64,000 bases of DNA, taken from positions 48,287 to 112,286 of the forward strand of contig JANQOR010000014.1 in the NCBI GenBank assembly GCA_028285685.1, read 5' to 3'. The first letter of the stretch is position 1; each line of letters begins with the position of its first letter. The DNA is from Cyclobacteriaceae bacterium (lineage in GTDB: Bacteria; Bacteroidota; Bacteroidia; Cytophagales; Cyclobacteriaceae). Both the position numbers and the translations under genes were made by a program. Of the stretch, positions 12,093-60,600 are shown piece after piece. Under the pieces are notes generated by a model. It ran no database searches, had not been told where the DNA came from, and worked only from the letters and a program-made list of their open reading frames with translations.

Positions 12093-12101
12093 AAATAACT
12101 G

Positions 12102-13379: not shown

Positions 13380-13451
13380 AAATAACGGCCGTCTTGCTAT
13401 ATTGGTCTTTGATTAGCCGCTCCATAGCCTTATTTAGAATTATTATAAATA

Positions 13452-44074: not shown

Positions 44075-44166
44075 CTTATGTACTGACTTGGGAAATGTTG
44101 TTATGGTCTTTGCTGGTTTATTTGATCGCTTTGGTTCATGGCACATATGTCTTAGATCAACAGAAT

Positions 44167-44214
44167 GAGTCCTTGGGTAGAACGCCACCTCCAATCGAGC
44201 TCAAAAGAGATATC
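44167..44214 (+). repeat. degenerate copy of the tRNA-Asn 3' half with T-loop insertion (copy 2, more eroded)
   Basis: gagtccttgg[gtagaacgccacctccaa]tcgagctcaaaagagatatc aligns with both the tRNA 3' half and copy 1. Confidence 0.55.
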
Positions 44215-44407
44215 AGACCGAACCCCGTGTTAAACGCGTTTTTCGTTATTTGAATTTTATCCAGATGGCTGTTCCAATCTATGTAAGGAGTAACACCTTA
44301 CACCTCCATAAATACCATTCACCCCTCAATTCCTGTCACTAGACGATTTCTCCTGAAGTCAATACTTCAGAAAAATAGTTTTGAATCAAAAACTAAAGCT
44401 TACTACT

Positions 44408-46243: not shown

Positions 46244-46288
46244 TCGAAAAAATTCCGTCTACCTCTCTTTAATGGCTAAATTACTTTT

Positions 46289-48367
46289 ATGCCGGTAGAG
46301 AATCTAAGCGATAAGATATCCTTTGTCAAGGGAGACGAGAAGTACAGAAGTATCATTGACAATATGAATCTGGGCTTGTTAGAAGTTGATTTAGAGGGAG
46401 TTATTCAACATGCCAACGCTTCGTTTTGCAAGATGGTTGGGTACGATTCTAAAGAACTGCTGGGCAATTACGCCAATGAACTTTTTGTGTCTCGAGGTAG
46501 CCTCAGTGAGAAGTTGATAGAAGAGCATTCGTCGAAAAGGCTGAAGGGTCAACACAGTGTGTATGAGGTGCAGATCACAAGAAAGAACGGGCTTAGGATA
46601 TGGGTTATGATCGGTGGGGGGCCACTTTATGATCAAGATGGATCTGTGGTGGGAACAATTGGTATTCACCTCAATGTCACCGACAAGAAACAGAATGAAG
46701 AAGGACTTAAACGACTTGTCCGACAACTGGCTCAAAAAAACCAGGAATCAGAGCGTCAGCAAAAATTTCTCAAAGCTATCAATGACTTTTCCAATTTAAT
46801 TGCTGACAGACAGAGTATAACCGAGATCGCAGAAATCATGACAAGCAGTGTGATTGAGAAATTTGGGTTTGAGGACTGCATTATCTACGTACTGGATGAG
46901 GAAGAAACGCTTAAACAGGCTTCGGCATTCGGACCTAAGAAAGACGAGTGGGGGGGTGTTAGAAACCCAATCCGCATTCCATTGGGTCAGGGCATTGTAG
47001 GTACCGTTGGCAAAACCGGAAAAGCCGAAATTATCAAGGATACCTCCAAAGACTCACGGTACATTTTGGATGATACACACCGACTTTCGGAAATATCCGT
47101 TCCCATCATCTATGATGGTCACGTGTTGGGAGTCATTGACTCCGAGCATTCTCAAAAAGATTTCTTCAAACAGGAACACCTCGATACACTAACAACCCTT
47201 GCTAGTCTGGCATCTTCTCGCTTAAAATCCGCGATTTCATGGGAAAAGGCAGAGCGGGTCAGGTCGGAATTACAAGAAAGTGAATCAAAGTTCAGGAACA
47301 TCATTGACTCAGCACTTGATGCGGTTGTAATAATAGATGGCAAAGGAATTGTGACGGAGTGGAACCACCAGGCTGAGGAGACATTTGGATATAAGAGCAA
47401 GGAAACCATTGGCAAGAAATTGTCAGGATTAATCATTCCGAATCAGTACAAAGCTGCTCACGAAAAGGGCATGAAGAAATTCCATCAGACCGGGGAAGGA
47501 CCTGTCCTCAATCAACGGATTGAAATCACGGCTGTAGGCAAGAATCGGGCTGAGTTCCCAATTGAACTCAGTATTTCGCCCATCAAGGTTGATAATCAGC
47601 ATTTTTTCAGTGCTTTTCTGAGAGACATATCCGAGCAGAAGGCCAATCAGGAGAAAATTGAAAAGTCGCTCGAGCGAGAACGAGAGCTGAGCGAGTTGAA
47701 ATCGAAGTTTGTTTCCATGGCCTCACACGAGTTCAGAACACCGCTCACCACAATCAAAGTGAATGTCGATCTGCTGAATCACCGACTTGCCGATGCAAAA
47801 GATGCAGAACCAATGATGAAAAACCTGGAGCGAATTGATAATGAAGTGGAGAGGCTTAAGAGTTTAATGAACGATGTACTTACAATTGGAAAAATCCAGG
47901 CCGGAAAGGTTGACATTAATCTACAAAAAACCAACCTCGTCTACCTCGTAGAAAAGATAGTGGAAGCCTCGACATCCGCTCAATCGGATGGGCGAAAAGT
48001 CGCTTTCACCGTATATGGGATGGAAAAAGATGTCGAAATAGATCCTAACGTATTCGAACACATCATTAGCAACCTTGTGTCCAACGCTTTCAAATATTCA
48101 GAAGGCAAGGATGAGCCGGAGTTAACCATATCCTTCAAAAAAGGGAGGGTAGAGTTGATGGTACGAGATCATGGAATTGGGATTCCGAAAGAGGATTTAG
48201 AAAATATTTCAGATACCTTCTTCAGAGCTTCCAATGTTGGCAACATTCAAGGGTCAGGGATCGGTTTAGCCATCGTGAACCAGTTTGTCAAACTTCATAA
48301 TGGAACCTTCGATCTGAAGAGTGAGGAAAACAAAGGAACGACGGTAACTGTTTCCATTCCGTTATGA
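46289..48367 (+). CDS. PAS-GAF-PAS sensor histidine kinase (cytoplasmic)
   Basis: Two PAS modules and a GAF module (GIVG.V...G...I..D...D.RY....). The H-box is MASHEFRTPLT. The N-box is LVSNAFKYS, with G-boxes DHGIGIP and GSGIGLA. No TM segment. Confidence 0.88.
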   Translation: MPVENLSDKISFVKGDEKYRSIIDNMNLGLLEVDLEGVIQHANASFCKMVGYDSKELLGNYANELFVSRGSLSEKLIEEHSSKRLKGQHSVYEVQITRKNGLRIWVMIGGGPLYDQDGSVVGTIGIHLNVTDKKQNEEGLKRLVRQLAQKNQESERQQKFLKAINDFSNLIADRQSITEIAEIMTSSVIEKFGFEDCIIYVLDEEETLKQASAFGPKKDEWGGVRNPIRIPLGQGIVGTVGKTGKAEIIKDTSKDSRYILDDTHRLSEISVPIIYDGHVLGVIDSEHSQKDFFKQEHLDTLTTLASLASSRLKSAISWEKAERVRSELQESESKFRNIIDSALDAVVIIDGKGIVTEWNHQAEETFGYKSKETIGKKLSGLIIPNQYKAAHEKGMKKFHQTGEGPVLNQRIEITAVGKNRAEFPIELSISPIKVDNQHFFSAFLRDISEQKANQEKIEKSLERERELSELKSKFVSMASHEFRTPLTTIKVNVDLLNHRLADAKDAEPMMKNLERIDNEVERLKSLMNDVLTIGKIQAGKVDINLQKTNLVYLVEKIVEASTSAQSDGRKVAFTVYGMEKDVEIDPNVFEHIISNLVSNAFKYSEGKDEPELTISFKKGRVELMVRDHGIGIPKEDLENISDTFFRASNVGNIQGSGIGLAIVNQFVKLHNGTFDLKSEENKGTTVTVSIPL

Positions 48368-48396
48368 TTCAGTTTTAATAAATTTATGAGCTTAGT

Positions 48397-49119
48397 ATGA
48401 ATGCACTAAAAATATTAATTGTAGAAGATGAGCAGCCCATCGCTGAAAGCCTCCAGGAAATTCTCGAAATCCTCAAACATTCAGTGGTAGGAATTGCATC
48501 GAGCCACGATGAAGCCCTCCATCAGCTAAATACCAATGAAATTGACCTGGTGCTTTTGGACATTCAGCTCAAGGGCGATAAATCAGGAATTGATGTGGCA
48601 GAGACCATCAATGCAAAGTTTAACGTACCCTATATTTTCACTACCGCTTTTGCCGACGAATCCACCGTAAAGCAAGCTAGCGAGCTAGGCCCATATGGTT
48701 ATGTGGTTAAACCTTATGGGATGAAAGACATCGGTCCAGCCATCGAGGTAGCCTTTCAGAATTTTCAAAAAGCACGAGAAATCAAATCAGAGCAAGGACA
48801 GTTTCTCTCCAATCACCTGTATATAAAGGCCAACTCCAAACTCATTCGACTGAACGATGACGAGGTGCTCTACATTGAAGCTAAGGGAGACTATGCCCTA
48901 TTTAAGACACCGGAGAAAGGCTATGTTGTGCACTCGACAATAAAGAACGTTGCTGAAAAAATGGATCCTCAAAAGTTCCTGAAGGTTCATCGCTCGTACA
49001 TAGTCAACCTTGACAAAATCAAGGACATTGAAGATTCAAGCATTCTAATTGAGGACAAAGTCATTCCTGTCAGTAGACAAAACAAGCCGGACTTGATGAA
49101 AAGGATCGATTTGATCTAA
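48397..49119 (+). CDS. LytR/AlgR family response regulator (REC + LytTR DNA-binding domain)
   Basis: The REC domain has ILIVEDE and DLVLLDIQL. The LytTR domain reads I....I.YIEAKGDY....T......V..T.K.......F..VHRSYIVNL. Confidence 0.9.
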   Translation: MNALKILIVEDEQPIAESLQEILEILKHSVVGIASSHDEALHQLNTNEIDLVLLDIQLKGDKSGIDVAETINAKFNVPYIFTTAFADESTVKQASELGPYGYVVKPYGMKDIGPAIEVAFQNFQKAREIKSEQGQFLSNHLYIKANSKLIRLNDDEVLYIEAKGDYALFKTPEKGYVVHSTIKNVAEKMDPQKFLKVHRSYIVNLDKIKDIEDSSILIEDKVIPVSRQNKPDLMKRIDLI

Positions 49120-49205
49120 CCGTTACTTCCTTCCAGTCAACCTGGTTTTCATACCAACAATCGAAGAAAATCATCTAAGGCTCCCGAGCACGACAATTTT
49201 GAATC

Positions 49206-50882
49206 GTGCTAAACTACAATACTAAACTGATTTTACTTCTTTGCCTCATTGCATCCATTGATGGAGTGAGAGCGCAAAAGCATGTGACTGAGCTATCGGA
49301 CTTATACCGACAAGCAAAAAGTCAGCTGGACTCATTATGTCATCCAAAACTCAAAACCCATGATGAAATTCAAAAACTTTTTACTCCTGATTCTTTTCGC
49401 TTTGCTGATCATCGTTCGGAAATCCTACTTGAAGAACTCAAAGTAGACCAGAACGATTACGGACTAAATTTCTTGTCGAGCTACACACGAAATTTTGGAG
49501 ACGGCTTCAATAACGAGACAGAAAACTTCACCAGAGACCGGTTTGCGCTGGAAGTGCAATGGAATCTGCTAAGCGAAGGTTATCGTCACAACAAGATAAA
49601 AAATGAGGTCGCAGCCAACGAGCTAGCTATCAATGAATTGGAAAGGAGGCAGTACCTAAAGCAACGCGAGTATGGACTGCAATACAATGCTATTATTTAC
49701 CTGTTCAATCAAGCGAAGCTTTCCTTTCTACAATCCAGATTGGATCAATTGGAAAATCAAGAGCACATTTTTAATGACTTGTACCTGAACCACTTACTAC
49801 CCTATACACATGTACTAGCCGTGCGGAAAAAAGTCTCTAAATACCGGCTGTTTATCAAAGACTGTGAAGCCTTTAATATAAGCTTTGAAACAGCCACTAG
49901 TTGGAAGCCTATGGGAGATGCCACACAATTCCCTGTGTATGGGGTCGCAATAGCGCAATTACTGGAATCAGGAGATCTCGACCACGAAAGTCAGAAACTA
50001 CTGGAATATCAGAACCAAAATGTCTACCTGCGTGATCAGCTACAAAAGGATATACGATTAAGAGTATTCGCACGCAGGACATATACAGCGGGAGCGTTGG
50101 ACGGATTTAACCGTAACTTCAACTCGCTGGGAGTAGCTGTGAATGTACCGCTACGCAACTTCCGCAACTCACGGGAAAAGTTACTTGACCTACAAGTTCA
50201 GCAGAATGTCAAAGAGCACGACTATGAAACCTACCACCAAAAGAAGGAGCTGCTGAATCACTACTACGAGTACGAATACAAGCTGCATCAATATCAGCAG
50301 ATGGCTTTTGATGCCCGCAAACTCGACGAGATCATCCGTAAAGATCAGCTAAAAGGTAAGGATTTGAGTTTCCATGTCAGCAAAGTCAACTCGCTGGAGC
50401 TGCTGAATGAACGTGCGGATATCGAACTGGAATTGATCACTCTCAAACAACAGCTGTATTTGAAATTGCTCAAAATTCACTCGCTTGCCGGAGTCGATGA
50501 CATGTCTGTCTACCTGATACCTGATGAGGAGATCCAGGAAAAGAAATTAATTGGTGAGCGGATTGCTGTAGTCAGATCGGCTGACATTGAAAGGTACAGT
50601 TTCGATCTTATCACAGCCTATTTGAAGAATAGTGAAATCAACAAAATCAAAGTCGACTCGCTTTCTGAGATTACGACCCTTAAAATCAAAGGTCAGGGAA
50701 TAGAGATTATCAATTCCCATGGTAAAGCGCTACCAGTGCACCCAAGTAGCTTCTCCAGTAAGTCGGAGATGGAGCAATTCATCCGTCACCAGCTTTCCAA
50801 AGAAACAAGGCCAATCCTGATTTTAGACTTATCTGCACTCATTGAGCTGGAGTTGAAAACCATTAAAAATCAACAACAATGA
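49206..50882 (+). CDS. TolC/OMF-like outer-membrane channel protein with ~125-aa C-terminal extension of unknown fold
   Basis: Signal peptide (LLLCLIASIDGVRAQ). A two-fold internal repeat pairs short beta segments with long heptad helices (FALEVQWNLLSEGY...NELAINELERRQ... and LGVAVNVPLRNF...LLDLQVQQN...). The track start is GTG. The assignment was made by pattern only. Confidence 0.55.
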   Translation: MLNYNTKLILLLCLIASIDGVRAQKHVTELSDLYRQAKSQLDSLCHPKLKTHDEIQKLFTPDSFRFADHRSEILLEELKVDQNDYGLNFLSSYTRNFGDGFNNETENFTRDRFALEVQWNLLSEGYRHNKIKNEVAANELAINELERRQYLKQREYGLQYNAIIYLFNQAKLSFLQSRLDQLENQEHIFNDLYLNHLLPYTHVLAVRKKVSKYRLFIKDCEAFNISFETATSWKPMGDATQFPVYGVAIAQLLESGDLDHESQKLLEYQNQNVYLRDQLQKDIRLRVFARRTYTAGALDGFNRNFNSLGVAVNVPLRNFRNSREKLLDLQVQQNVKEHDYETYHQKKELLNHYYEYEYKLHQYQQMAFDARKLDEIIRKDQLKGKDLSFHVSKVNSLELLNERADIELELITLKQQLYLKLLKIHSLAGVDDMSVYLIPDEEIQEKKLIGERIAVVRSADIERYSFDLITAYLKNSEINKIKVDSLSEITTLKIKGQGIEIINSHGKALPVHPSSFSSKSEMEQFIRHQLSKETRPILILDLSALIELELKTIKNQQQ

Positions 50883-52015
50883 AAAAGTTTGATTACAAAA
50901 AGAAGCCCTCCATCATTCGAACATTGAAGGAGCCGCCTAAGAAGAAAAAGAAAATTAACTGGGACCGTGTCCTGTTTCTTGCAGCAATTTTCATTGGCCT
51001 CTTTTTTCTCTTGCGTCATACGTACAAGAGCGTTGCACTTGTGGAGGCCGACGGTCAAGTGATGTTAGAAAGTATCAAGGTAAACTTCATCAATGACATC
51101 CGTCTCAGAAATCTGAAGGTGACGGAAGGCGACACTGTTCAGGCACTGGATACGCTGTTCTCATACTGGAATGAACTCCATGATGATGACGGATCGAAGA
51201 GTGTCCAGATAAATAATACTAACGAGTGGGTAAGAAAGGAAAAATTGAACCTTCTTCGGAAGATTAGTCAGAAAAATGTTGAGCTGCGAGAAGCCACACG
51301 ATTGCTTGAAGAGTATGGCGCACAAAAAGAGAAGCTCGTTCAGTTCGTAATGCTGGATGCAGCCGAAAATTCGAGCCTTCAAGCAGTAACCAATCAACTC
51401 CTTAGTCTGGAAAGCCGACAGGAGATTCTTCGAAACGAAGTCTTCTACTTGAGGCGACACTACAATCAATTGAGATCTGAAGAAGCTACATTGGTGGATT
51501 TGACCTCCGGTGGCTATAGCAGCGCGTTAACAAGCAATCTGTATATCTCTCCTTTTAGAGGTATCATCGGTGAAATTCAGATCCAACCAAACGAAGTGTG
51601 CTATGAGGGAGAATACGTTTTTACCATCCATAGTCCCGAAAAAATCGCCATCCACGCTTACTTCAGTCAAAAAAACATTGATCGAATCTTCCTCAATGAA
51701 ATTGTAAAAGTCTCTTTTCCCGACGGATCGGAAGGAAGAGGATACATCAAAAAATATCACATTTCTACGAAGGAGCTTCCTCCTGAATTTCAAAAGAAAT
51801 ATGAGCCAACGGAACGAACAATCTTAACAGAAATTTTTCCGATAGACGAAGAAACAGCGACTCTCTGGAAGAAATTTTACAAAATGGACGTTCGGGTTTC
51901 TCTACCAAGGTTTCGGTCTGAGATCTACATGCCAGACAGGGAGTCTGACGAGCAGATTTCCAATTCCAATAATCCCATAAAATCTTCCATTCAACCGAAT
52001 AAGAAAGTCAACTAA
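50879..52015 (+). CDS. HlyD-family membrane-fusion (periplasmic adaptor) protein
   Basis: Basic cytoplasmic N-terminus and a single TM helix (VLFLAAIFIGLFFLL). A lipoyl-like hairpin (LRNLKVTEGDTVQALDTLF), a long coiled coil and a second lipoyl half plus barrel (SPFRGIIGEIQIQPNEV..EGEYVFTI) follow. ATGA overlaps the upstream stop. Confidence 0.7.
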   Translation: MKKFDYKKKPSIIRTLKEPPKKKKKINWDRVLFLAAIFIGLFFLLRHTYKSVALVEADGQVMLESIKVNFINDIRLRNLKVTEGDTVQALDTLFSYWNELHDDDGSKSVQINNTNEWVRKEKLNLLRKISQKNVELREATRLLEEYGAQKEKLVQFVMLDAAENSSLQAVTNQLLSLESRQEILRNEVFYLRRHYNQLRSEEATLVDLTSGGYSSALTSNLYISPFRGIIGEIQIQPNEVCYEGEYVFTIHSPEKIAIHAYFSQKNIDRIFLNEIVKVSFPDGSEGRGYIKKYHISTKELPPEFQKKYEPTERTILTEIFPIDEETATLWKKFYKMDVRVSLPRFRSEIYMPDRESDEQISNSNNPIKSSIQPNKKVN

Positions 52016-52071
52016 CGAACTGAACGAAAAAGGGGGAATCCAGAAAATAGCTTTGAAGAAAATAAAAAACT

Positions 52072-53424
52072 ATGCAAGTACTATTAAACAATACGAATGA
52101 ATCAATGCAGACTCCCGTGGTAGGAGAATGGGGAATCTATGAGGAGCTACTCCTCAATAACAAAGAGATTGCTGTTGTCGGATTAGGCTATGTGGGCCTC
52201 CCCATTGCCCTGGAATTTGCCAAAGACTTTTCCGTTGTAGGGTTCGACATCAACGAAGGGAGAGTTCAAATGATGCAAGATGGTCAGGACCCATCGAATG
52301 AGCTGGAAGAAGGTGAGTTCGAAGGTCGAAACATCACCTTCTCAGCAGATTCTTCTGAAATGGCGCACGCAAAATTTTACGTGGTTGCTGTTCCAACACC
52401 AATCGATGCAAACAATGAACCCGATTTGAGACCTCTGATAGGGGCTACCCGAACTGTAGGTAAGGTGCTAAAAGCAGGCGATTATGTGGTGTTTGAATCA
52501 ACGGTTTACCCAGGCTGCACAGAAGAAGTATGCATTCCCCGTTTGGAGGAAGAGTCTGGCCTGAAGTTTAACAAAGATTTTAAAGTAGGATATTCCCCGG
52601 AGCGAATCAATCCCGGAGACAAAGTGAACACCTTAACGAAGATCACCAAGGTGGTTTCGGGCAGCGATCAGGAGTCCTTGGAGCAAATTTCGAAAGTCTA
52701 CGGACATATAATCGAAGCAGGCGTGCATAAGGCGTCCTCCATAAAAGTTGCCGAAGCCTCCAAGGTGATTGAAAACACTCAACGCGATGTAAACATTGCA
52801 TTGATCAACGAACTATCTGTTATTTTCAGCAAGCTCGGTATCGACACTTACGAAGTACTTGAATCAGCTGGAACCAAGTGGAATTTTCTGAAGTTTCAGC
52901 CCGGCCTGGTCGGCGGTCACTGCATTGGTGTGGATCCCTACTATCTGATTCACAAGGCAAAGGCTGAAGGGGTGAACCCTGCTGTTATTGCAAGTTCAAG
53001 AGCACGCAATGACGAGATGGCCAGCCACCTTGCCCTTTCACTAATGGAAGAGTTGAAGCAAAAAGGTAAAAAGACGCAAGGCGCTAAGGTCTTAGTGCAA
53101 GGAATCACCTTCAAAGAAGATGTTTCGGATATCCGAAATTCAAAAGTTGTTGATCTGATTTGTGAACTGAAAGCGGGTGGATTGCATGTGGACGTGACCG
53201 ATCCTTATGCTGACAAACATGAGGTCGAGGAAGAGTACGGGATTCTCCTAAAACAAACTCCTGATAATGATTATGACGCAATAGTTGTTGCTGTCGACCA
53301 CAAACAATACAGCTTCCTTGACTCCTCGTACTACCATGCCATCTGCAATGCAGATCCGGTCATTATGGACCTGAAGAAGACAGTCGAAGGCAAAGTCAAT
53401 GGATTTCAGTACATGAGTATGTAA
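52072..53424 (+). CDS. nucleotide-sugar 6-dehydrogenase, TviB/WbpO-like (UDP-N-acetyl-hexosamine dehydrogenase)
   Basis: VVGLGYVGLPIALEFA Rossmann fold, VPTPID, ESTVYPG.TEE, GYSPERINPGD, KV.EN..RD.NIAL.NEL, the catalytic GGHCIGVDPYY, and GITFKE...D.RNS. Confidence 0.85.
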   Translation: MQVLLNNTNESMQTPVVGEWGIYEELLLNNKEIAVVGLGYVGLPIALEFAKDFSVVGFDINEGRVQMMQDGQDPSNELEEGEFEGRNITFSADSSEMAHAKFYVVAVPTPIDANNEPDLRPLIGATRTVGKVLKAGDYVVFESTVYPGCTEEVCIPRLEEESGLKFNKDFKVGYSPERINPGDKVNTLTKITKVVSGSDQESLEQISKVYGHIIEAGVHKASSIKVAEASKVIENTQRDVNIALINELSVIFSKLGIDTYEVLESAGTKWNFLKFQPGLVGGHCIGVDPYYLIHKAKAEGVNPAVIASSRARNDEMASHLALSLMEELKQKGKKTQGAKVLVQGITFKEDVSDIRNSKVVDLICELKAGGLHVDVTDPYADKHEVEEEYGILLKQTPDNDYDAIVVAVDHKQYSFLDSSYYHAICNADPVIMDLKKTVEGKVNGFQYMSM

Positions 53425-53463
53425 TCTGAAATCCGAAATAATAAACTACTACACTGAACAAAA

Positions 53464-54831
53464 ATGCTGCAAGTATTACATCAAACCGAAGGTAGGCGAT
53501 ACATTGAGAGTCAGGGACTAAGGTTCCTGTTCCTCTCTGGTGTCGCCGACTATGAAGCAGCATCTGTCAAAGATTCCGATGCGATTATCATAGGAGAAAT
53601 GGACAGAATGGAAATTTCTCAACTCCTGAACGTTATAAGAAGGGAACGTGACAAGTCAGTTTATCTCAAGCCTATCTTTAGCGTGCATCAGAACAAGCTA
53701 CAAAATCAGGAAGGCTTTGATGGCTTCACAGATCTCACGTCCAACGAATCGATCGCTCAGGTAACACAAAAGATACTCGCGAGGATAGAAAAAGTGAATA
53801 CAAGTATTGTCCCGCACGACTATGAAAGGCAGGTACTGTTCAAGCAGATGGCTTTTTTGTACACTAGAGATCTCCTACTAGATCCTGTGTCCTCAAGGTT
53901 TTCCAAAATCGGATACACATTTCCCTTCATGGATAGCCTGCTTTCTGGTGGATCGTCGCTGGAACTATTGAAAATTCTCAACACCGGTGTTGAAAAAGGG
54001 TTATTAACTGCTCGTCTGAGGGACAGAATTCATACCTGTAACAACTGTCATGGTAACTATATCAACTTCCGAGAAGTGTGCCCAAAGTGTAGCAGCGTAA
54101 ATATTGAGTCAAAGGATCTGGTTCATCACTTCAAGTGTGCTCACGTTGATGTGATCGACTCATTCAAGGATGGTGACGAGCTGATCTGTCCAAAGTGTGA
54201 CAACAAGTTGCGTCACATCGGTATTGACTATGACAAGCCATCCACCATGCATGAGTGTCATGATTGTCACCATCAGTTTCAGGAGTCTGGCATGGTTGCT
54301 TTTTGCATTGATTGCGGAAAAGAGGAAGACACAGCCAACCTGCTTGAAAATGAAATACGATCTCACGCCCTGACCGAGAGAGGCGAGCATTTGGTTCTCA
54401 ACGGGTGGGAGGAAAAAGTGCAAGAGGGTGGGCAGGAAGCGAAGCACTTGTCTCCTGACTTGTTCAAGATGATGCTGAACCTTGAAATACAACGTGCAAC
54501 AACAGAGACTCGAAGTGTTTTCGGAAGATTTGAAATCAGCGAAATAATTGTGTCAGTCCTTGGCGAAGATGGACGTGAGCAATTTCAGAAGGAAATTCTA
54601 GGAATTATCGGCAGTTATATCGATCGTACAGACCTTGTCTCGACTAAAAGTGCCGACGAATATCTTCTCTTGTTTCATGACAAAACACTTGAAGAAGCTC
54701 GCGAAAAATGTGAGTTGATCGAACACAATCTGACGAAGCTCATTGCCGATAACATCAATGCAGAGCAAGATCTTATTACTGGCACGGTTCAACCCGTCGT
54801 ATCAGACCTGCGTCCCCAGGATTTGATGTAA
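53464..54831 (+). CDS. multidomain regulator-like protein: receiver-like N-domain + Cys-rich Zn-ribbon module (TackOD1-like) + degenerate GGDEF-like C-domain
   Basis: Residues 192-284 carry five CxxC pairs (CNNC, CPKC, CPKC, CHDC, CIDC) with HHFKC between them. The C-terminal ~100 aa follow the GGDEF-fold pattern, with SADEY (aa 396-400) in place of GGDEF, followed by LLLF. Domain calls were made by eye. Confidence 0.6.
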   Translation: MLQVLHQTEGRRYIESQGLRFLFLSGVADYEAASVKDSDAIIIGEMDRMEISQLLNVIRRERDKSVYLKPIFSVHQNKLQNQEGFDGFTDLTSNESIAQVTQKILARIEKVNTSIVPHDYERQVLFKQMAFLYTRDLLLDPVSSRFSKIGYTFPFMDSLLSGGSSLELLKILNTGVEKGLLTARLRDRIHTCNNCHGNYINFREVCPKCSSVNIESKDLVHHFKCAHVDVIDSFKDGDELICPKCDNKLRHIGIDYDKPSTMHECHDCHHQFQESGMVAFCIDCGKEEDTANLLENEIRSHALTERGEHLVLNGWEEKVQEGGQEAKHLSPDLFKMMLNLEIQRATTETRSVFGRFEISEIIVSVLGEDGREQFQKEILGIIGSYIDRTDLVSTKSADEYLLLFHDKTLEEAREKCELIEHNLTKLIADNINAEQDLITGTVQPVVSDLRPQDLM

Positions 54832-56138
54832 TGGAAAACCTTTGGCCAGAATTTGTAAACTATTGGGTCGAGGCGGGTCCATGGAAATTTCTAAGGGTCT
54901 TCTGGTACTTCCTCATCTTCGAGTTTACCCGTTATATCATTCTAGACTACTTCGTGGCTGGCTTATTCTACCTCCGAAGAAAAGATCGGAGACATGCCTG
55001 GGAGATTGCCAGACAGAAACTTTTCACAGAAAACCCACTTATATCCATCATCATCCCAGGCAAAAATGAAGGCAAGCATATTTTCAAACTGGTGAAGTCT
55101 CTGGCCGAGCAAACATATCAGAATTTCGAACTGATTGTAGTCGACGATGGCTCAGATGACCAAACGCCCATTATTGGTAAAAATCTTGAAAAGCGGGGAT
55201 TGATCGATATGTTCATTCGAAATGAAATGCGTGGAGGAAAAGCATCCGCAGCAAATACTGCATTGGCTTTTACGAAAGGCAAATACATTGTCCATCTTGA
55301 TGCAGACTGCTCCTTCGACCGTGACGCGATCGAGAACGTGGTAATACCCTTCTACCTTGATGAAAAAATCGGTGCTGTAGGAGGTAATGTCAAAGTCCGC
55401 AACTATCAAGAGAGCTTATGTGCACGATTACAGGCAATCGAATACCTGAAAACCGTTTCTGTTGGCAGAATTATTACCTCCTACCTTGGCATTTACAAGA
55501 TCGTTTCCGGGGCGTTCGGAGCTTTCCGTCCTGAAATACTTAAAGCAATTGGAGGATGGGATATTGGACCGGGATTGGATGGAGACATCACTGTAAAAAT
55601 TAGAAAATCAGGCTACAAAATTCATTTTGAACCAACAGCTGTGTGCTTAACCAATGCGCCGGCAAAATTCAAAGTGCTCACTAAGCAGCGATTGAGATGG
55701 GATAAATCCATCATTCGCTTTCGAGTAAGGAAACACAAAGATGTCTACTTCCCTCATGCAAATTTCAACTGGTTGAATTTCATATCTCTGTTTGAGAATG
55801 TGTTCTACAATGTAGTGCTGGACATCACATGGATCATTTACACTGTTGATGTCGTGTTACATTATTGGTCGCTCATGGGTTTTATCATCCCCATGAACTT
55901 TGTGTTGTATATCACCGTGAGCTACGTACAGATGCTGTCTGTCTACTTGTTTTCAGAACGCAGACAGGAAGAAAAAAAACTCTGGAACGTACTACCCTTG
56001 ATGACGATCTACACCGGCCTTTACCTCCGGACCGTCCGCACCATTGCCTATTTCAAGGAATTCGTCCTGAAGGAATCGTATGACGATCCGTGGAACCCCC
56101 AGAAGTCTTCCCGAATGGCTAAACGATTTGGGTTATAG
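54831..56138 (+). CDS. processive family-2 glycosyltransferase / polysaccharide synthase (PgaC/IcaA/NodC/HasA-like topology)
   Basis: Two N-terminal TM helices and a GT-A core with VVDDGSDD, HLDADC (DxD), GAFGAFR and QRLRW (aa 286-290, the Q(Q/R)xRW processivity motif). Three to four C-terminal TM helices follow. TAATG overlaps the upstream gene. Confidence 0.88.
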   Translation: MENLWPEFVNYWVEAGPWKFLRVFWYFLIFEFTRYIILDYFVAGLFYLRRKDRRHAWEIARQKLFTENPLISIIIPGKNEGKHIFKLVKSLAEQTYQNFELIVVDDGSDDQTPIIGKNLEKRGLIDMFIRNEMRGGKASAANTALAFTKGKYIVHLDADCSFDRDAIENVVIPFYLDEKIGAVGGNVKVRNYQESLCARLQAIEYLKTVSVGRIITSYLGIYKIVSGAFGAFRPEILKAIGGWDIGPGLDGDITVKIRKSGYKIHFEPTAVCLTNAPAKFKVLTKQRLRWDKSIIRFRVRKHKDVYFPHANFNWLNFISLFENVFYNVVLDITWIIYTVDVVLHYWSLMGFIIPMNFVLYITVSYVQMLSVYLFSERRQEEKKLWNVLPLMTIYTGLYLRTVRTIAYFKEFVLKESYDDPWNPQKSSRMAKRFGL

Positions 56139-56231
56139 AACTTACCAGTTAACCCCAAAATCTTGTCAGTCACCGAAAGATCTGATTTCCCACCTCGTCC
56201 GCGGATTGCTTTGCACTTAAATACATAAACT

Positions 56232-58136
56232 ATGAAACAGAAAAATTTAATCATGCTCTTCTTCCTCACGGCAATGGGCTGTGGTACTGAAGTTGACATG
56301 GAGGTGGTCCCACTAGATGTAGCAGAATCGTCCGAGGTATATGCCGGGGATCCGGGCACATTCGCATCCCGGATGCACTACGTTAACAGAACAATTTTGC
56401 TGACTCCACATGCTGATGGCAGAGGAAGAATTTCTGCTCGATCTACTACGGGAGGTCAATTGGACTACTATTGGGCGCATATTGCATCTGTAGATGCCCC
56501 AGTCATTGATGGTTTGCAGATGAGTGCCACTCATTTCGACATTAAGAACAACCTCGCGTATGTTAGCTATCACAAGCGAGCTGAAACTCACAAGGGGGTT
56601 TTAGATATCATCGATCTAAGCGATCCATATCGACCGGAGATTACGGATCAGCTGATCTTTAGTCTGGCTGACGTAAATGCCTTGGCATGTGACAAGGATG
56701 GCACCTTGTGGACTGCCACTTCCCACTCAAAACATGGTGCAGCACTATACAAAGTGCCGACGATTGGTTCTTCGTTTACAAGAGAAGCATCAAGATACAC
56801 ACTGAGCAATGCCCTGGATAATGGAGTTTCTGCTTCGGCCAACGGAGTGGCACTTACAGAAAACTACGCTGCACTTTCGGCTGGAAAAACCCACGGTGGT
56901 ACTTTCATCGTGGATAAAAACACACTAAGTGCCTCAGAAGTTTTCAGTTATCCGAATGGAAAATATGTGGTTACCACAGAAATCAATGGAGCAGAATATC
57001 ATGCCTCACTCTCGACAGGAGATATTGCCAGCTTAAAGGTGAAGCAGGTTGGAACTCGTGCGGAGCTGTCTGAATATTCTATCGGAACGATCACCCATCA
57101 AAATGTGGACGCGACATACCGAGGGAAATCCACCATGGAAATTTCACCACAAAATGCACGTGAGGTATTCGTGGCGATGGGAGAAGAAGGATTGAGGTCT
57201 TTCGACATCCTCACAGGTAAACTTCTGAATGAGTCAAAGGGAACCATGCTGATGGCGGGCAATACCAATGGAGTCACCATGGACAAAGATTTCCTTTACA
57301 TCGCTAATGGCGCTGATGGGCTTTCAATATCAGAATACCCTGAAGACGGTACGATTGACCCTATATTTTATTGGGATTTACCCGAACAGCCAGCTTCTGT
57401 CAATTTTACGAAGGCGAGCAACGAATACATCTTCGTTGCAAAAGGACTCGGTGGATTTCACATTTTGAAGAAGGTTCCAAAAGCACCTTATTCAACCGTT
57501 ACAACCTATGATAACATTGGTGTTCCGGAAAATATGGAGCAAAGGGAGGTGTGCTCGAAACTCCTGCCCACGCTATTCGACCGAGCGCTGCCTGAGCGAA
57601 ACAACGTGATGCGTAGTAATCCTGAGTTCTTTGAAGTTGAAGCGAGGAATATCGATATTGTAGAGGACGGAGAAGTTTCTGTGACCTTCCTACACGAAGG
57701 TGCTGGTTACAAAAACATACTTGGGTACCACGTATACAAAACGGATGCTCCGCCAGCCTCCGTAGATGAGGTGGAGAAGGTCGTTATTTTTCCTAACGCT
57801 TCCGCTCAAAGATCGGGAGGTGGTTTGGTAAGGGGGAACTCAGTTGAGCTTTTGGGTTCATTTGAGGCAGGTACCTCTATTGGCTTCTTTCTGATCTCGA
57901 ATGGCTGGAAAGGAAAAATCACTGACGGATTGTACACCCAATATACTGACATCCCATTTAATGTCAGTGGACGCCAGCAAAGTCTGATCTTTCATGAGCG
58001 ATCTTGTGACGCTATTGTGATCGCTTTTGAAGACATCACCGTCCCGAACGGAGATAATGATTTTAATGACGCAATCTTCCAGATTCATTCTGATCCCCCA
58101 ACGGCTATCGATGCGTCGGCTTACATTCAACTCTGA
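56232..58136 (+). CDS. lipoprotein with LVIVD-type beta-propeller repeats and C-terminal DUF4114 domain
   Basis: Lipobox LTAMGC. LVIVD-like units are present (GVLDIIDLSDPYRPEI, DGLSISEYPEDG). The C-terminal block VSVTFLHEGAGYKN.LGYH......GFFLISNGW....VIAFEDI....GDNDFNDAIFQI is typical of DUF4114. Confidence 0.7.
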   Translation: MKQKNLIMLFFLTAMGCGTEVDMEVVPLDVAESSEVYAGDPGTFASRMHYVNRTILLTPHADGRGRISARSTTGGQLDYYWAHIASVDAPVIDGLQMSATHFDIKNNLAYVSYHKRAETHKGVLDIIDLSDPYRPEITDQLIFSLADVNALACDKDGTLWTATSHSKHGAALYKVPTIGSSFTREASRYTLSNALDNGVSASANGVALTENYAALSAGKTHGGTFIVDKNTLSASEVFSYPNGKYVVTTEINGAEYHASLSTGDIASLKVKQVGTRAELSEYSIGTITHQNVDATYRGKSTMEISPQNAREVFVAMGEEGLRSFDILTGKLLNESKGTMLMAGNTNGVTMDKDFLYIANGADGLSISEYPEDGTIDPIFYWDLPEQPASVNFTKASNEYIFVAKGLGGFHILKKVPKAPYSTVTTYDNIGVPENMEQREVCSKLLPTLFDRALPERNNVMRSNPEFFEVEARNIDIVEDGEVSVTFLHEGAGYKNILGYHVYKTDAPPASVDEVEKVVIFPNASAQRSGGGLVRGNSVELLGSFEAGTSIGFFLISNGWKGKITDGLYTQYTDIPFNVSGRQQSLIFHERSCDAIVIAFEDITVPNGDNDFNDAIFQIHSDPPTAIDASAYIQL

Positions 58137-58161
58137 TTTCTTGATACTCAGAGTTGAATGT
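58123..58161 (+). other. perfect 14-bp inverted repeat spanning the stop codon of the DUF4114 gene
   Basis: acattcaactctga (58123..58136), an 11-nt loop, then tcagagttgaatgt (58148..58161). No T-run follows immediately. Confidence 0.7.
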
Positions 58162-58183
58162 TTAGTAGTAGGTTAGTAAGAAA

Positions 58184-58213
58184 TGGCTCCCTCCACGGGG
58201 GCCTTTCTTTTTT
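58184..58213 (+). terminator. rho-independent terminator closing the 49.2-58.1 kb operon
   Basis: ggctccc-tccac-gggggcc stem (one G:U pair), followed by TTTCTTTTTTCTC. Confidence 0.7.
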
Positions 58214-58347
58214 CTCTCAATCATAAAAAATCCAGTTATCCTTACCTCTTTTCCAATCACCCCCTTAACAAGGTCATTCACCGTAAAAATCACATTTCCA
58301 GCCTATTCGGAGACATTTTTGTACAGTAATTAGAATTATTCAAGAAG

Positions 58348-58554
58348 ATGAAAAAGATAAAAATAGCCTTATATCATTGCCCCAATTCACTGGAATACAA
58401 ATTGATCAAATGGACGGATCGTATAGATCTGAACGATCCTTGTTTACTGTGGGTGTTCGATTCATCGAAGCTCAGAACGGCAAGGAAGATTATGAAGAAT
58501 CTAAATCTGGCCAGGGACCTGAGCACAGCTAGAACGTTTTCAATCGCAGGTTAG
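58348..58554 (+). CDS. small hypothetical ORF (68 aa), doubtful
   Basis: It is the only ORF in a 550-bp gap. It has no recognisable motif. Confidence 0.2.
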   Translation: MKKIKIALYHCPNSLEYKLIKWTDRIDLNDPCLLWVFDSSKLRTARKIMKNLNLARDLSTARTFSIAG

Positions 58555-58686
58555 AAGGTCCGTTGCTGTCTAAAACTCTTATTAGAGTAATCGTTACCGG
58601 GAGTTCTTCACAAAATCTTCATTAGTCCATGCAGGACAAGCAAAGTCTTTTCTTCAAATTGGATTCCAAATCAAGTAGCCTAGGAG

Positions 58687-59538
58687 ATGAACAATCGTGA
58701 TTCAATAGCACAACCTGTCAATTGGCAAGCATTAAAGTTCTTTGCCTTCGCTTACATATGGTCATGGGCATGGTGGGTGCCTGTGGTGCTTAAACTCCAA
58801 TCACAAGGAATACACCTGGGAATTGTACCTTCATGGATTGTTCCATTTGTCCTTATTGGTGCCTACGGTCCAAGTATTGCGGCTATTGTTTTTGCCGCAT
58901 TTTCAGGTGGCAGAATGGAGGTGAAGAGACTACTATCAAAGTTGTTGATTTGGAGAGCTCCCGCTAAAGTTCACCTGATGGTCTGGTTAGGACATCCGGC
59001 ATTCATGGCCTTCACTATTTTTATCTATGCAAATCTTTTTGGCCCAGTGGGAGACCTTGATTGGTCTGGACTTTTACTTATTCCCACAGTCCTGCTAACT
59101 GGTGTGATTTTTGGCCCACTGGCTGAGGAGCTTGGCTGGAGAGGATACGTACTACCACTGCTTCAAAAGAATTACTCTCCATTGGTCAGCAGTCTTATTG
59201 TAGGCGTAGCATGGTGCTTTTGGCATACTCCTCTTTTCTGGGCACCAGCGGGAACACTGATCAGTGGTCAGGAAGTAACGATTGTAGCGGTAGGGAAGTA
59301 TCTTCTTTTTACCTGCGGATTAGCCATCATCTTTACATGGATTGTGAATCATTCCAAAGGTTCTGTTCTATTATCGATCGCATTTCATCTGATCATTAAT
59401 GCATCCATTCCCCTTTTACTATTTCCTAATATGAGTTCAAACACAAGCCTCGAGATCAAGTGGTTTTCACTACTTCCAGTTTGGGTTGTGGCAATTGGAA
59501 TATCTGCCTTTGGTAGAAATGTAAAAAGCGGAAACTGA
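58687..59538 (+). CDS. CPBP family intramembrane glutamic endopeptidase (CAAX protease/Abi-like)
   Basis: Polytopic membrane protein with motif 1 EELGWRGY, motif 2 FWHTP and motif 3 HLIINA. Confidence 0.85.
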   Translation: MNNRDSIAQPVNWQALKFFAFAYIWSWAWWVPVVLKLQSQGIHLGIVPSWIVPFVLIGAYGPSIAAIVFAAFSGGRMEVKRLLSKLLIWRAPAKVHLMVWLGHPAFMAFTIFIYANLFGPVGDLDWSGLLLIPTVLLTGVIFGPLAEELGWRGYVLPLLQKNYSPLVSSLIVGVAWCFWHTPLFWAPAGTLISGQEVTIVAVGKYLLFTCGLAIIFTWIVNHSKGSVLLSIAFHLIINASIPLLLFPNMSSNTSLEIKWFSLLPVWVVAIGISAFGRNVKSGN

Positions 59539-59559
59539 TGTCAACAAGAAAAACTTCCT

Positions 59560-60600
59560 TTATTCTCTAAGCGCTTCGTTTATCTCCAAAGCCGTTTGCC
59601 GTGCGGTCTTCCCTACACCATAAATTGTGGCTGAGGCAAACCCCGTCCAGTTGCCATAACCAACCAACCACAACTTCGGCTCCTTTAGCGAGCGCGTAAA
59701 CTTTGTTGCTACCCGACCATTTTCCACGACATTCAATGCATCCAGATGCTGCAAATAGGTTTTAAAGCCAGTGCACCATATTACCGCATCAAACTGTTCC
59801 TTTTTACCGTCAGGCCATACAACACCTTCCTCATAAAAAGATTTAAAAGGTCTTTTGGCGTTGAGTACGCCTCTTGTGGAAGCTTCTTTAACACTTTCCA
59901 GCATGACAATGTCACCTAAGGAGAATTCAACTTTGTTACTTGATGGTTTTTTTAAGAATTTACTTGTTGCCTCCTGAAATAGGAAACGTCCGTCTACATG
60001 ATCAGGTAAGAATCGTGGTTCCTCCAGCGTAATCCATTGTGTTTGTGCCACTTTAGAGACCTCTGCCAATATCTGGGCTCCGGAATTGCCACCCCCAACG
60101 ATTAGAACCTTTTTACCTTCAAATTCATCTGGCCTACGATATTCTGATGAGTGAATCATCTTCCCTGTAAAATGATCTGAATTTGGATAGGCAGGAATGA
60201 AGGGATGTTTGGAACTGCCTGTGGCGCTAACGATGGTTTCGCTGCGAAAGGGGCCCTGATTTGTTTCTATCACAAACAGGTTGTCTTCCCTACTTACTCC
60301 TGCTACCTGAACTGGCCTTTTAACAGGAAAATTGTATCGATTTTCATAGGCTTTGAGGTATTGGATAAATTCATCTTTTCCCGGATACGTATTCTCCCCT
60401 TGTGGCATCATCCATCCAGATAATGTGCTATATGTGACAGGTGAGAAAAGTGTCAGGCTATCCCACGTATTAAGCCACGAACCACCTGGCTGCATTTGAT
60501 CATCGAGGATCAAATAATCTATCGCGTACTTCCGAAGAAAATAGGCTACCGATAAACCAGCTTGTCCCCCACCAATTATGATACAATCATAAATCTTCAT
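59560..60600 (-). CDS. NAD(P)/FAD-dependent oxidoreductase, ArsO-like flavin-containing monooxygenase family
   Basis: IIIGGGQAGLS FAD fold, GGSW...WDSL.LFSP...S.L.GW.MP block and a second dinucleotide site VLIVGGGNSGAQI. The family name comes from recollection of similar sequences. Confidence 0.6.
   Translation of the reverse strand: MKIYDCIIIGGGQAGLSVAYFLRKYAIDYLILDDQMQPGGSWLNTWDSLTLFSPVTYSTLSGWMMPQGENTYPGKDEFIQYLKAYENRYNFPVKRPVQVAGVSREDNLFVIETNQGPFRSETIVSATGSSKHPFIPAYPNSDHFTGKMIHSSEYRRPDEFEGKKVLIVGGGNSGAQILAEVSKVAQTQWITLEEPRFLPDHVDGRFLFQEATSKFLKKPSSNKVEFSLGDIVMLESVKEASTRGVLNAKRPFKSFYEEGVVWPDGKKEQFDAVIWCTGFKTYLQHLDALNVVENGRVATKFTRSLKEPKLWLVGYGNWTGFASATIYGVGKTARQTALEINEALRE

Follow-up and report, generated by a model that had tools for sequence, protein, structure and literature searches.

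There are two proposed precedents for the system reported here, in which a polysaccharide synthase would work with TolC. In cyanobacteria, a model has the cellulose synthase XcsA (which has a PilZ domain), the HlyD-like protein XcsB and TolC form a tripartite machine for secretion, with an endoglucanase alongside (PMC12430437, on Maeda 2018); this model still awaits validation. For the mixed-linkage glucan of BgsA and BgsB in Sinorhizobium, there is a genetic requirement for tolC, and its direct role is said to remain to be shown (PMC13438883). The same article still calls the direct passage of polysaccharide through TolC-type ducts an open question. Here we describe a six-gene operon in a 64,000-nt stretch of DNA from a Cyclobacteriaceae bacterium. 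We call this stretch the window, and by a window protein we mean the copy encoded there. The operon encodes a processive family 2 glycosyltransferase (GT2) together with a TolC-family outer-membrane factor (OMF, the channel) and an HlyD/EmrA-type membrane-fusion protein (MFP, the adaptor). Judging from the genes and from structural models, we put at roughly 60% the probability that the operon encodes a glycan secretion system of the synthase-dependent kind, organised like a tripartite efflux pump but lacking the pump. An initial annotation of the window had proposed that the synthase replaces the pump of an OMF-MFP machine. The fold of the OMF, the fixed order of four genes and the lack of a conserved pump all agree with this idea, but the concept has prior proposals in Xcs and Bgs. 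Closer precedents than those cited in that annotation exist in the XcsA/XcsB/TolC (PMC12430437) and BgsA/BgsB/TolC (PMC13438883) proposals.

The unit is a four-gene core plus accessory modules. The core comprises the genes for the channel (558 aa with its signal peptide; positions 49206-50882 of the window), the adaptor (378 aa; 50879-52015), a cytoplasmic protein of 455 aa that joins receiver-like, TackOD1 and GGDEF-like domains (53464-54831) and the GT2 (435 aa; 54831-56138), all on the + strand. We surveyed the neighbourhoods of this core across the Bacteroidota in 87 loci (labelled L001-L087), which are the best 80 of at least 556 loci that matched the TackOD1 marker in GTDB species genomes plus 7 that were found via the channel. 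Their open reading frames (ORFs) were searched with iterated hidden Markov models (HMMs) built from the window proteins. Of the 87 loci, 75 have the channel, 83 the adaptor, 85 the TackOD1 protein and 84 the GT2, and most of the missing genes are put down to contig ends. In every case, the genes were on one strand and in the order channel, adaptor, (dehydrogenase), TackOD1 protein, GT2. The median identity to the window protein is 22% for the channel, 35% for the adaptor and 31% for the TackOD1 protein; because partners this distant are still in the same order, the gene order must have outlasted deep divergence. The stop/start overlaps between the channel and adaptor genes and between the TackOD1 and GT2 genes recur in relatives as well.

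The carriers are Cytophagales, Flavobacteriales, Saprospirales, Bacteroidales and Balneolales, plus one member of the Desulfuromonadales, and they include Tenacibaculum, Flavicella, Spongiivirga, Crocinitomix, Saprospiraceae, Portibacter, Balneolaceae, Rhodohalobacter, Prolixibacter and Puteibacter. Among the cultured carriers are Crocinitomix catalasitica ATCC 23190 (L063), Prolixibacter bellariivorans ATCC BAA-1284 (L087), Tenacibaculum holothuriorum S2-2 (L016), Flavicella marina 2A-7 (L018), Spongiivirga citrea KCTC 32990 (L022) and Portibacter marinus (L046). The nearest named relatives are Ekhidna (Cytophagales, Reichenbachiellaceae) and one metagenome-assembled genome (MAG) from the Cyclobacteriaceae. 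How large the family appears depends on the protein. The TackOD1 protein had 334 matches in a word-indexed protein search, and a search of 1.84 billion representatives gave 1,037 clusters for it (50% identity, E <= 1e-30). The word-indexed search found just 9 close relatives of the channel, even with a 32-sequence profile, and the channel family appeared tiny until the TackOD1-marker loci were searched with iterated HMMs. The other genes are less constant: a sugar dehydrogenase is present in 38 of the 87 loci, at varying positions, a DUF4114 protein in 22, a kinase and LytTR regulator pair in 23 and glmS in 6. All-against-all clustering of the ORFs in the 87 loci gave no further conserved neighbour, as the extra families were antisense shadow ORFs. 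So the six genes that were expected to be conserved together reduce to four.

The channel was identified by its fold. Pfam's OEP family (PF02321) scores 18.5 bits against the window channel, below the cut-off of 22, and matches 17 of 32 members of the channel family at E <= 0.01 (best E = 3.2e-9). A sequence profile of the family found nothing meaningful in the PDB, and fold comparison alone worked. In the AlphaFold2 (AF2) model, a beta-hairpin, a long helix and another helix occur twice in succession, which is the pattern of an OMF protomer: hairpin 86-119 and helices 126-194 and 200-230 in the first repeat, and hairpin 284-315 and helices 321-382 and 389-428 in the second. When this model was compared to the PDB with Foldseek, ranks 1-44 were exclusively OMF channels (probability 1.0, 370-420 aligned columns), including CmeC, OprM, TolC, CusC, VceC and MtrE. 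The initial annotation had named failure to model as an OMF barrel as grounds for refutation, and the protein passes this test. The protein begins with a signal peptide whose cleavage context, VRA and then Q24 with the cut between them, is conserved, and both M1 and Q24 are invariant in nine close homologues. We note that the identical protein from NCBI has 532 aa and starts 26 codons 3' of the GTG at 49206, so that it skips 49206-49283. This deposited start is probably too short, because the longer ORF has the signal peptide and the invariant M1 and Q24.

The channels continue past the OMF fold, and the initial annotation had overlooked this extra C-terminal domain. The tail is 17 aa in Balneolaceae, about 85-170 aa in other channels and up to about 250 aa in the longest (for example in L053 and L063). 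Long tails (~250 aa) from other clades match Pfam's GH18 family weakly (E = 1.6e-5 and 4.5e-4), and a profile of the long tails finds mostly GH18 chitinases and chitotriosidases in the PDB. The alignment to GH18 chitinases is in register, with G-I-H-L-D-I-E-P on D-G-I-D-V-D-W-E and M-A-Y-E on M-A-Y-D, and the channels of 21 loci have both H[LI]D[IVL]EP and M[AC]YE intact. Such a fusion would link the channel as such with a glycan as substrate, probably one that contains N-acetylhexosamine (HexNAc). The window channel has a tail of 123 aa (about residues 437-558; 50514-50879), which AF2 folds into four beta-alpha units with a predicted local distance difference test (pLDDT) score of about 74-83 and for which Foldseek gives weak TIM-barrel matches. 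It does not have the DxxDxDxE and MxYD motifs of GH18; because the entire motif-bearing middle is missing, we regard it as a predicted non-catalytic, degenerate remnant of a GH18-like domain. The C-termini of TolC-family proteins lie in the periplasm, so the GH18-like module is expected to be periplasmic and carried on the channel. By analogy, it would be the counterpart of BcsZ, PgaB, PelA or AlgL. As an aside, the best solved match of the long tail is PDB entry 10yv, a 275-aa protein from Cellulomonas fimi that was deposited as a "putative GH97" and that shares the motif ...V-Q-L-D-V-E-P-W-T-L-P-S-W with the long tails. This match hints at a wider, poorly classified family of TIM-barrel glycosidase-like proteins with an LD[IV]EP signature.

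The adaptor has the TM anchor (a single N-terminal transmembrane segment, residues 26-49), the lipoyl/barrel-sandwich domain and the coiled-coil hairpin of HlyD/EmrA-type MFPs. HlyD_3 scores 23.2 bits in the window protein, just over the cut-off of 22.2, and the family as a whole is easier to recognise: HlyD_3 matches 25 of 29 members, HlyD_D23 21 and Biotin_lipoyl_2 10, and in the PDB the family profile finds EmrA (1.7e-8, over hairpin and barrel), HlyD-type MFPs and MacA. The cytoplasmic N-terminal tail, of about 25 residues, is unusually conserved, with the consensus SVIRTLKEPP..KKK.NWDR.

The 455-aa protein contains the TackOD1 domain (PF18551) at E = 1.2e-54. Its five CxxC motifs and one HxxC motif are invariant (C192/195, C206/209, H222/C225, C242/245, C265/268 and C281/284), and their layout agrees with the description of TackOD1 in PMC5847659. 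This is the sole paper we found that mentions the domain, and it terms the function obscure. The AF2 model (pLDDT 84) has a receiver-like alpha/beta domain, a zinc ribbon module and a C-terminal GGDEF fold. The N-terminal domain is receiver-like by fold only: just R59, L68 and P70 are invariant in 27 sequences, these sequences have no conserved strand-end Asp or acidic pocket, and the window protein has no match to Response_reg. The C-terminal domain superposes on solved GGDEF domains (Foldseek TMt 0.53-0.65, root-mean-square deviation 2.6-4.7 A), and PF00990 matches 6 of 27 relatives, at E-values down to 2.6e-7. At the position of the GGDEF motif, the window protein has SADEY, and GG[DE]EF is kept in 0 of 83 homologues, so this domain appears to be catalytically dead. 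In 37 of the 83 TackOD1 proteins, RxxD is found exactly five residues before the dead motif, which is the I-site geometry of PssE, a degenerate-GGDEF I-site receptor that activates an exopolysaccharide (EPS) synthase (PMC4125290). The window sequence here is DRTD-LVSTK-SADEY, with RxxD missing at the expected position.

The GT2 has the motifs DDG105, DAD157, GDIT251 and QRLRW286 and hydrophobic N- and C-terminal segments. DDG, DAD, GDIT and QR.RW are kept by 73-75 of 75 full-length homologues and so are invariant or close to it. The GT2 matches Glycos_transf_2 (E = 4e-26) and Chitin_synth_2 (E = 1.8e-9) in Pfam. The best NCBIfam match is PgaC_IcaA, over residues 32-398, at 179.3 bits, which does not reach the cut-off of 422.3. 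Next come NodC (73 bits) and then chitin and hyaluronan synthases, and solved structures of hyaluronan synthase (HAS) match as well. Against CelA (TIGR03030), the GT2 scores 27.8 bits (cut-off 699), and it has no match to PilZ. Along with the GH18-like fusion, these affinities to PgaC, NodC and chitin synthase seem to favour a HexNAc polymer. Thus, what the initial annotation had said about these four proteins (a TolC-like protein with a two-fold repeat, a single-TM HlyD-type adaptor, a receiver-like protein with a five-CxxC zinc ribbon and a degenerate GGDEF domain, and a processive GT2 with DDG, DAD and QRLRW motifs) agrees with the profiles and models.

The product might instead be something short. 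If the GT2 made HexNAc oligosaccharides such as the chito-oligomers of NodC, as a signal or a primer, then the adaptor and the channel would export these and there would be no matrix polymer. With 435 aa the GT2 is the size of NodC, and the matches to NodC and to Chitin_synth_2 point the same way; also, TolC ducts usually carry small molecules or unfolded chains, and a GH18-like domain would fit the chemistry of chito-oligomers. However, the top family match, at 179 bits, is to a polymer synthase, PgaC, and the HAS structures match too. NodC products leave the cell via the ABC exporter NodIJ, and no such exporter is conserved here. Furthermore, a hydrolase fused to the channel and a dedicated regulator look like parts of polymer systems. 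We think that oligomer export is unlikely and that a synthase-dependent system for a longer glycan explains the locus better.

All six ORFs of the operon are on the + strand. We read the junctions directly: the channel and adaptor genes share an ATGA overlap (CAACAATGAAAAAG; ATG at 50879-81, TGA at 50880-82), and the TackOD1 and GT2 genes share a TAATG overlap (GATGTAATGGAA; TAA at 54829-31, ATG at 54831-33). The remaining gaps in the six-ORF run are 56, 39 and 93 bp. After the last gene comes an intrinsic terminator on the + strand (58185-58213), with the sequence GGCTCCCTCCACGGGGGCC and then TTTCTTTTTT. The stretch 58185-58203 is the top terminator-like site of the region from 44000 to 60000, with a 7-bp stem, 6 G-C pairs and a T-run, and the + strand candidates inside the operon are weak. 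The total number of terminator-like sites in this 16-kb scan equals the shuffle expectation, and sigma-70 promoter-like sites in the same region are no more numerous than in shuffled sequence, so only the strong site at 58185-58203 carries weight. (Bacteroidota promoters differ from the sigma-70 consensus, which limits the value of that scan.) Profile searches of the operon found no ABC, RND or MFS domains, no Wzx, Wzy, Wza or Wzc, no PgaA, PgaB or PgaD, no BcsB or BcsC and no AlgK or AlgE. On all of these points (the six ORFs with two overlaps and gaps of 39-93 bp, the convincing terminator only after 58136, and the missing pump and partner proteins) the initial annotation was accurate. Its span of 49206-58136 does cover the operon, but it leaves out a conserved kinase/LytTR pair (46289-49119) and glmS (44381-46243). 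The functional span should begin at 46289, with the two-component system, or at 44381, with glmS, rather than at 49206.

The lack of a pump in the operon does not mean that there is no pump in the cell, and pumps may be unlinked from TolC. The adaptor and channel could be ordinary efflux or type I secretion parts whose pump is encoded elsewhere and which are merely co-regulated with a glycan synthase. The marginal profile scores of the window proteins would be compatible with this, and there are ABC or MacB genes within some kb of the cluster in L005, L007 and a few others. But ABC-like ORFs lie within 6 kb in just 5 of the 87 loci, their positions are not homologous, and no pump gene is conserved near the 87 loci, as the initial annotation would predict. 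Known systems encode adaptors together with their pumps, whereas here not just the channel but the adaptor as well is tied to the GT2, with stop/start overlaps, and this holds in 83 of 87 loci. A glycoside-hydrolase-like domain on the channel is also hard to reconcile with a general-purpose efflux duct. We consider an unlinked pump to be quite improbable, and we return to the GT2 as the partner of the adaptor and channel.

It is about as improbable, in our view, that the locus is a divergent Pga/Ica system that makes poly-N-acetylglucosamine (PNAG), that is, a known polymer and pathway with swapped outer components. PgaC_IcaA is the top NCBIfam match, and genes for the supply of UDP-GlcNAc adjoin the operon. 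Yet 179 bits is far under the equivalog cut-off of 422, and the PgaA porin with its tetratricopeptide repeats (TPRs), the PgaB deacetylase/GH153 protein and PgaD are in none of the 87 neighbourhoods. GH18 enzymes cleave beta-1,4 rather than beta-1,6 HexNAc linkages, which does not suit PNAG, and the subtype with the dehydrogenase implies uronic residues, which are foreign to PNAG. Finally, we rejected a Vi-antigen system, as a TviB-like enzyme is all that the two have in common and there is no TviC, TviD, TviE or Vex ABC exporter. A synthase-dependent glycan secretion system without a pump remains our preferred reading.

The accessory genes say something about the precursors and about regulation. 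The dehydrogenase (450 aa; 52072-53424) defines the subtype to which the window belongs. It scores 392.8 bits against the NDP-sugar dehydrogenase family TIGR03026 (cut-off 189.8), and its best PDB match is the NDP-GalNAcA dehydrogenase 3g79; UDP-ManNAc dehydrogenases match too. The initial annotation called it a TviB/WbpO-like UDP-HexNAc 6-dehydrogenase. TviB is the closest model (NF011729), but the score of 460 bits is below the equivalog cut-off of 592. Also, glmS (glutamine-fructose-6-phosphate aminotransferase; 44381-46243, + strand), which would serve UDP-GlcNAc supply, lies upstream, and glmS-like GATase/SIS ORFs are at the equivalent position in L001 and L007. The adjacency of glmS and the TviB-like dehydrogenase appear to point to UDP-HexNAc precursors. 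An acidic polymer with HexNAc-uronate was previously proposed as a trait of the system. Because just 38 of the 87 loci have the dehydrogenase, it can be a trait of a subtype at most, and GT2s that are 53-93% identical to the window's (n = 75) are found in loci with and without this gene. In L007, whose channel is 56% identical (10001-17634), the two-component system, glmS and the DUF4114 gene are all present but the dehydrogenase is missing from between the adaptor and TackOD1 genes, so it is dispensable or unlinked even within the window's own clade.

The operon's final gene encodes a probable lipoprotein of 634 aa (56232-58136). DUF4114 matches its C-terminal part (E = 1.9e-13; 51.6 bits, cut-off 27) and is found in 17 of 18 family members, and Cys17 is invariant across the family. 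The proposed LVIVD label is not supported: the family scores 13.5 bits in the window protein, below the cut-off of 20.2. Of the 17 other proteins in the DUF4114 alignment, 16 have no LVIVD match, and the one that does is a divergent member, probably that of L070. We could not detect by sequence any solved relative of this family. The gene always occurs with, or near, the dehydrogenase subtype. Upstream of the operon are a PAS-GAF-PAS histidine kinase (46289-48367; Pfam PAS_9, GAF_2, PAS, HisKA and HATPase_c) and a REC-LytTR response regulator (48397-49119; Response_reg E = 1e-21, LytTR E = 8e-19), both on the + strand. The kinase is also upstream of the cluster in L001, L003-L007 and loci from Flavobacteriaceae and Balneolaceae, and the regulator gene is directly 5' of the channel gene in 23 loci. 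The regulator is a probable transcriptional activator of the operon.

These features tend to travel together. None of the 21 loci with intact GH18-like motifs has the dehydrogenase within 10 kb, and all 35 complete loci with the dehydrogenase lack the GH18-like motif (Fisher p = 1.4e-8, in a test that ignores phylogeny). Similarly, RxxD is found in 2 of the 23 loci with the kinase/LytTR pair and in 35 of the 60 loci without it (p = 4e-5, again ignoring phylogeny). The window has one such package: the two-component system, a reduced channel tail, the dehydrogenase, DRTD with no RxxD, and the DUF4114 lipoprotein. We also looked for diguanylate cyclases beside the RxxD-type loci, and rejected the candidates, as these neighbours on the - strand are HisKA_2/HWE-type or hybrid histidine kinases. 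In five Crocinitomicaceae loci (L059, L064, L065, L079 and L084; ~12700-13900, - strand), a convergent HisKA_2/HWE-type kinase is just 3' of the GT2 gene, and in four from Bacteroidales (L053, L074, L078 and L087; ~4700-6400, - strand), a divergent REC-PAS-HisKA hybrid kinase is just 5' of the channel gene. Loci without the upstream LytTR gene often have such clade-specific sensory modules on the same core.

Several loci are irregular. In a close relative, a Cyclobacteriaceae MAG (OZ253955; L001 14212-15581, equal to L009 10001-11367), the TackOD1 gene is split into ORFs of 79 aa and 217 aa, and two tiny ORFs stand in place of the DUF4114 gene; the locus could be decaying, or the assembly could be wrong here. 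In L002 (17086-20537), AbiEii and HicA/HicB toxin-antitoxin-type genes lie between the GT2 and DUF4114 genes, and the latter is ~4 kb off. L004 has a DUF559 endonuclease-like gene between the adaptor gene and that for the dehydrogenase. Insertions seem to be frequent at the accessory end of the cluster, as at a hot spot. The lone non-Bacteroidota genome among the best 80 loci is a Desulfuromonadales MAG (CAKKSC010000074; L062 6717-12694), which has the full four-gene core, an intact GH18-like motif and an RPSD I-site. This suggests that the basal subtype was transferred horizontally or that the contig was binned wrongly.

As for the window itself, its G+C content is even throughout, and the flanking genes are an ordinary Bacteroidota chromosomal set: RecQ, HemA, a protein with a type IX secretion system (T9SS) sorting tail, and others. 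There were no matches to Rfam families, riboswitches included, from 44000 to 59000. Between the operon's terminator and the next gene is a stretch of ~480 bp (58204-58686) that holds no ORF of at least 80 aa and has no Rfam match; that gene encodes a protein of the Rce1-like CAAX protease family (58687-59538). An apparently truncated molybdopterin oxidoreductase gene (62120-63913) was considered and rejected, as the frame is open to 63997 and the apparent break is the edge of the window.

We propose that the system works as follows. The GT2 would polymerise a chain derived from UDP-HexNAc and thread it across the inner membrane, driven by polymerisation. Next to the synthase, the anchored adaptor would make a periplasmic sleeve and dock to the trimeric channel, and because of this docking the chain could exit without a beta-barrel porin or TPR partner. 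The TackOD1 protein, which is probably translationally coupled to the GT2, may be the cytoplasmic gate or co-activator of the synthase. In clades that keep RxxD, it probably senses cyclic diguanylate (c-di-GMP), by analogy to PelD, PssE and BcsE, and in the window's clade, with DRTD, control is probably mainly transcriptional, via the PAS-GAF-PAS kinase and the LytTR regulator. In the basal subtype, the hydrolase-like domain on the channel would trim the chain, as BcsZ, PgaB, PelA and AlgL do elsewhere; in the window, the DUF4114 lipoprotein may have assumed an envelope-side role after the GH18-like function was lost. glmS and the TviB-like dehydrogenase would supply UDP-GlcNAc and UDP-HexNAc-uronate, so the product of the window's subtype is probably a partly uronic, acidic version of the basal HexNAc polymer. 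More broadly, there may be an unrecognised class of glycan secretion system across the phylum, in which a dedicated TolC-family channel (ancestrally fused to a GH18-like domain) and an HlyD adaptor replace the porin and TPR, with a TackOD1 gatekeeper that senses c-di-GMP in some clades, and two-component rewiring and a switch to uronic sugars in others. We hold this broader idea tentatively, at slightly worse than even odds.

Several points weigh against our interpretation. Confidence in the AF2 model of the channel, which was built from an alignment of 9 sequences, is only medium (pLDDT 69.5), and the beta-strands in it are not well resolved. The GH18 similarity of the long tails is sub-threshold (25.2 bits, cut-off 29.6; E = 0.008-0.2 for the profile against the PDB). 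The TackOD1 protein of the window has no recognisable ligand site. The correlations that define the subtypes ignore phylogeny, so they describe packages at the level of clades and not independent events. For the precedent systems, too, it is still unproven that TolC takes a direct part in exporting the glycan (PMC13438883). There is also a problem of stoichiometry, with one synthase, a hexameric adaptor and a trimeric channel, which is common to Xcs and Bgs. Finally, the system, including its transcript, polymer and complex, is known from genes and predicted structures alone.

If the broader idea is right, this would be the first case in which operon structure itself argues that a TolC duct conducts polysaccharide directly. 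The genetics of Xcs and Bgs are ambiguous because the channel there is a housekeeping gene, unlinked and pleiotropic. The channel described here is dedicated, is encoded first in the operon and often carries a carbohydrate-related domain, so knock-outs in cultured carriers would be a clean test of glycan export by a TolC-type channel. The cluster is also the first functional context for TackOD1, and it suggests that marine Flavobacteriia, Saprospiria, Cytophagia and Balneolia, which are central to the colonisation of particles and to turnover during algal blooms, have a matrix or capsule polymer that is as yet unstudied. The two subtypes (hydrolase fusion with RxxD, as against dehydrogenase, DUF4114 and LytTR system) amount to a natural experiment on the joint evolution of regulation and polymer chemistry.

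How does this compare with known systems? We found no description of this cluster in the literature that we searched, the coverage of which was incomplete, and the view that it matches no named EPS pathway holds up: the GT2 reaches 179 of the 422 bits required for PgaC and 27.8 of the 699 for CelA. The tripartite pumps EmrAB-TolC, HlyBD-TolC and MacAB-TolC (PMC8277102) are alike in the adaptor profile (EmrA, HlyD and MacA) and in the channel fold (TolC, OprM and CusC), and EmrA and HlyD share the single N-terminal TM anchor. They differ in that no ABC, MFS or RND energiser is encoded here, and a glycosyltransferase takes that genomic, and presumably physical, place. The streptococcal has operon is alike in that a membrane GT2 (HasA) is co-transcribed with a UDP-sugar 6-dehydrogenase (HasB) that gives a uronic donor, and HAS structures match our GT2. 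However, our dehydrogenase seems to act on UDP-HexNAc, like TviB/WbpO, rather than on UDP-glucose and is accessory in the family, and the host is Gram-negative with an envelope-spanning duct.

PgaABCD/IcaADBC includes the closest characterised synthase family, and it shares the use of UDP-GlcNAc, the synthase-dependent logic and a hydrolase domain in the periplasmic machinery. PgaA, PgaB and PgaD are missing here, however, and the synthase score is below the cut-off; also, the outer route of Pga is a 16-strand porin with TPRs, whereas here it is an OMF with an alpha-helical duct, plus an MFP. PelD, PssE and BcsE are dead GGDEF domains encoded beside an EPS synthase that needs them, and 37 of the 83 relatives of our regulator share their RxxD. 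BcsE likewise joins degenerate REC and GGDEF modules. Our regulator is different in having the TackOD1 zinc ribbon between the receiver-like and GGDEF-like domains, and the window copy has DRTD.

The Xcs system, as summarised in PMC12430437, is alike in having a processive GT2, an operon-linked HlyD-like adaptor, a proposed TolC-type exit, an associated glycoside hydrolase (XcsC) and no BcsB/BcsC-type partners. Its synthase is BcsA-like with PilZ, where ours is PgaC/NodC-like without PilZ; its TolC is an unlinked housekeeping gene, where ours is dedicated, first in the operon and often fused to a hydrolase-like domain; and its substrate is glucose, where ours would be HexNAc-derived and the regulator is a separate protein with TackOD1 and a dead GGDEF domain. 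Bgs is alike in its operon of a GT2 and an HlyD-type adaptor, in the genetic requirement for TolC, in the proposed tripartite complex and in its control by c-di-GMP (PMC13438883; PMC5567048). It differs in that BgsA is a homologue of cellulose synthase that binds c-di-GMP by its own C-terminus and in that TolC is unlinked and pleiotropic; furthermore, Bgs has no hydrolase fusion, TackOD1 protein or sugar dehydrogenase. Given the CelA score and the lack of a PilZ match, we regard our system as an analogue, not an orthologue, of Xcs and Bgs. What is new here, relative to both, is the lineage of the synthase, the dedicated channel encoded in the operon, the hydrolase-like fusion in many clades, the architecture of the regulator and the Bacteroidota host.

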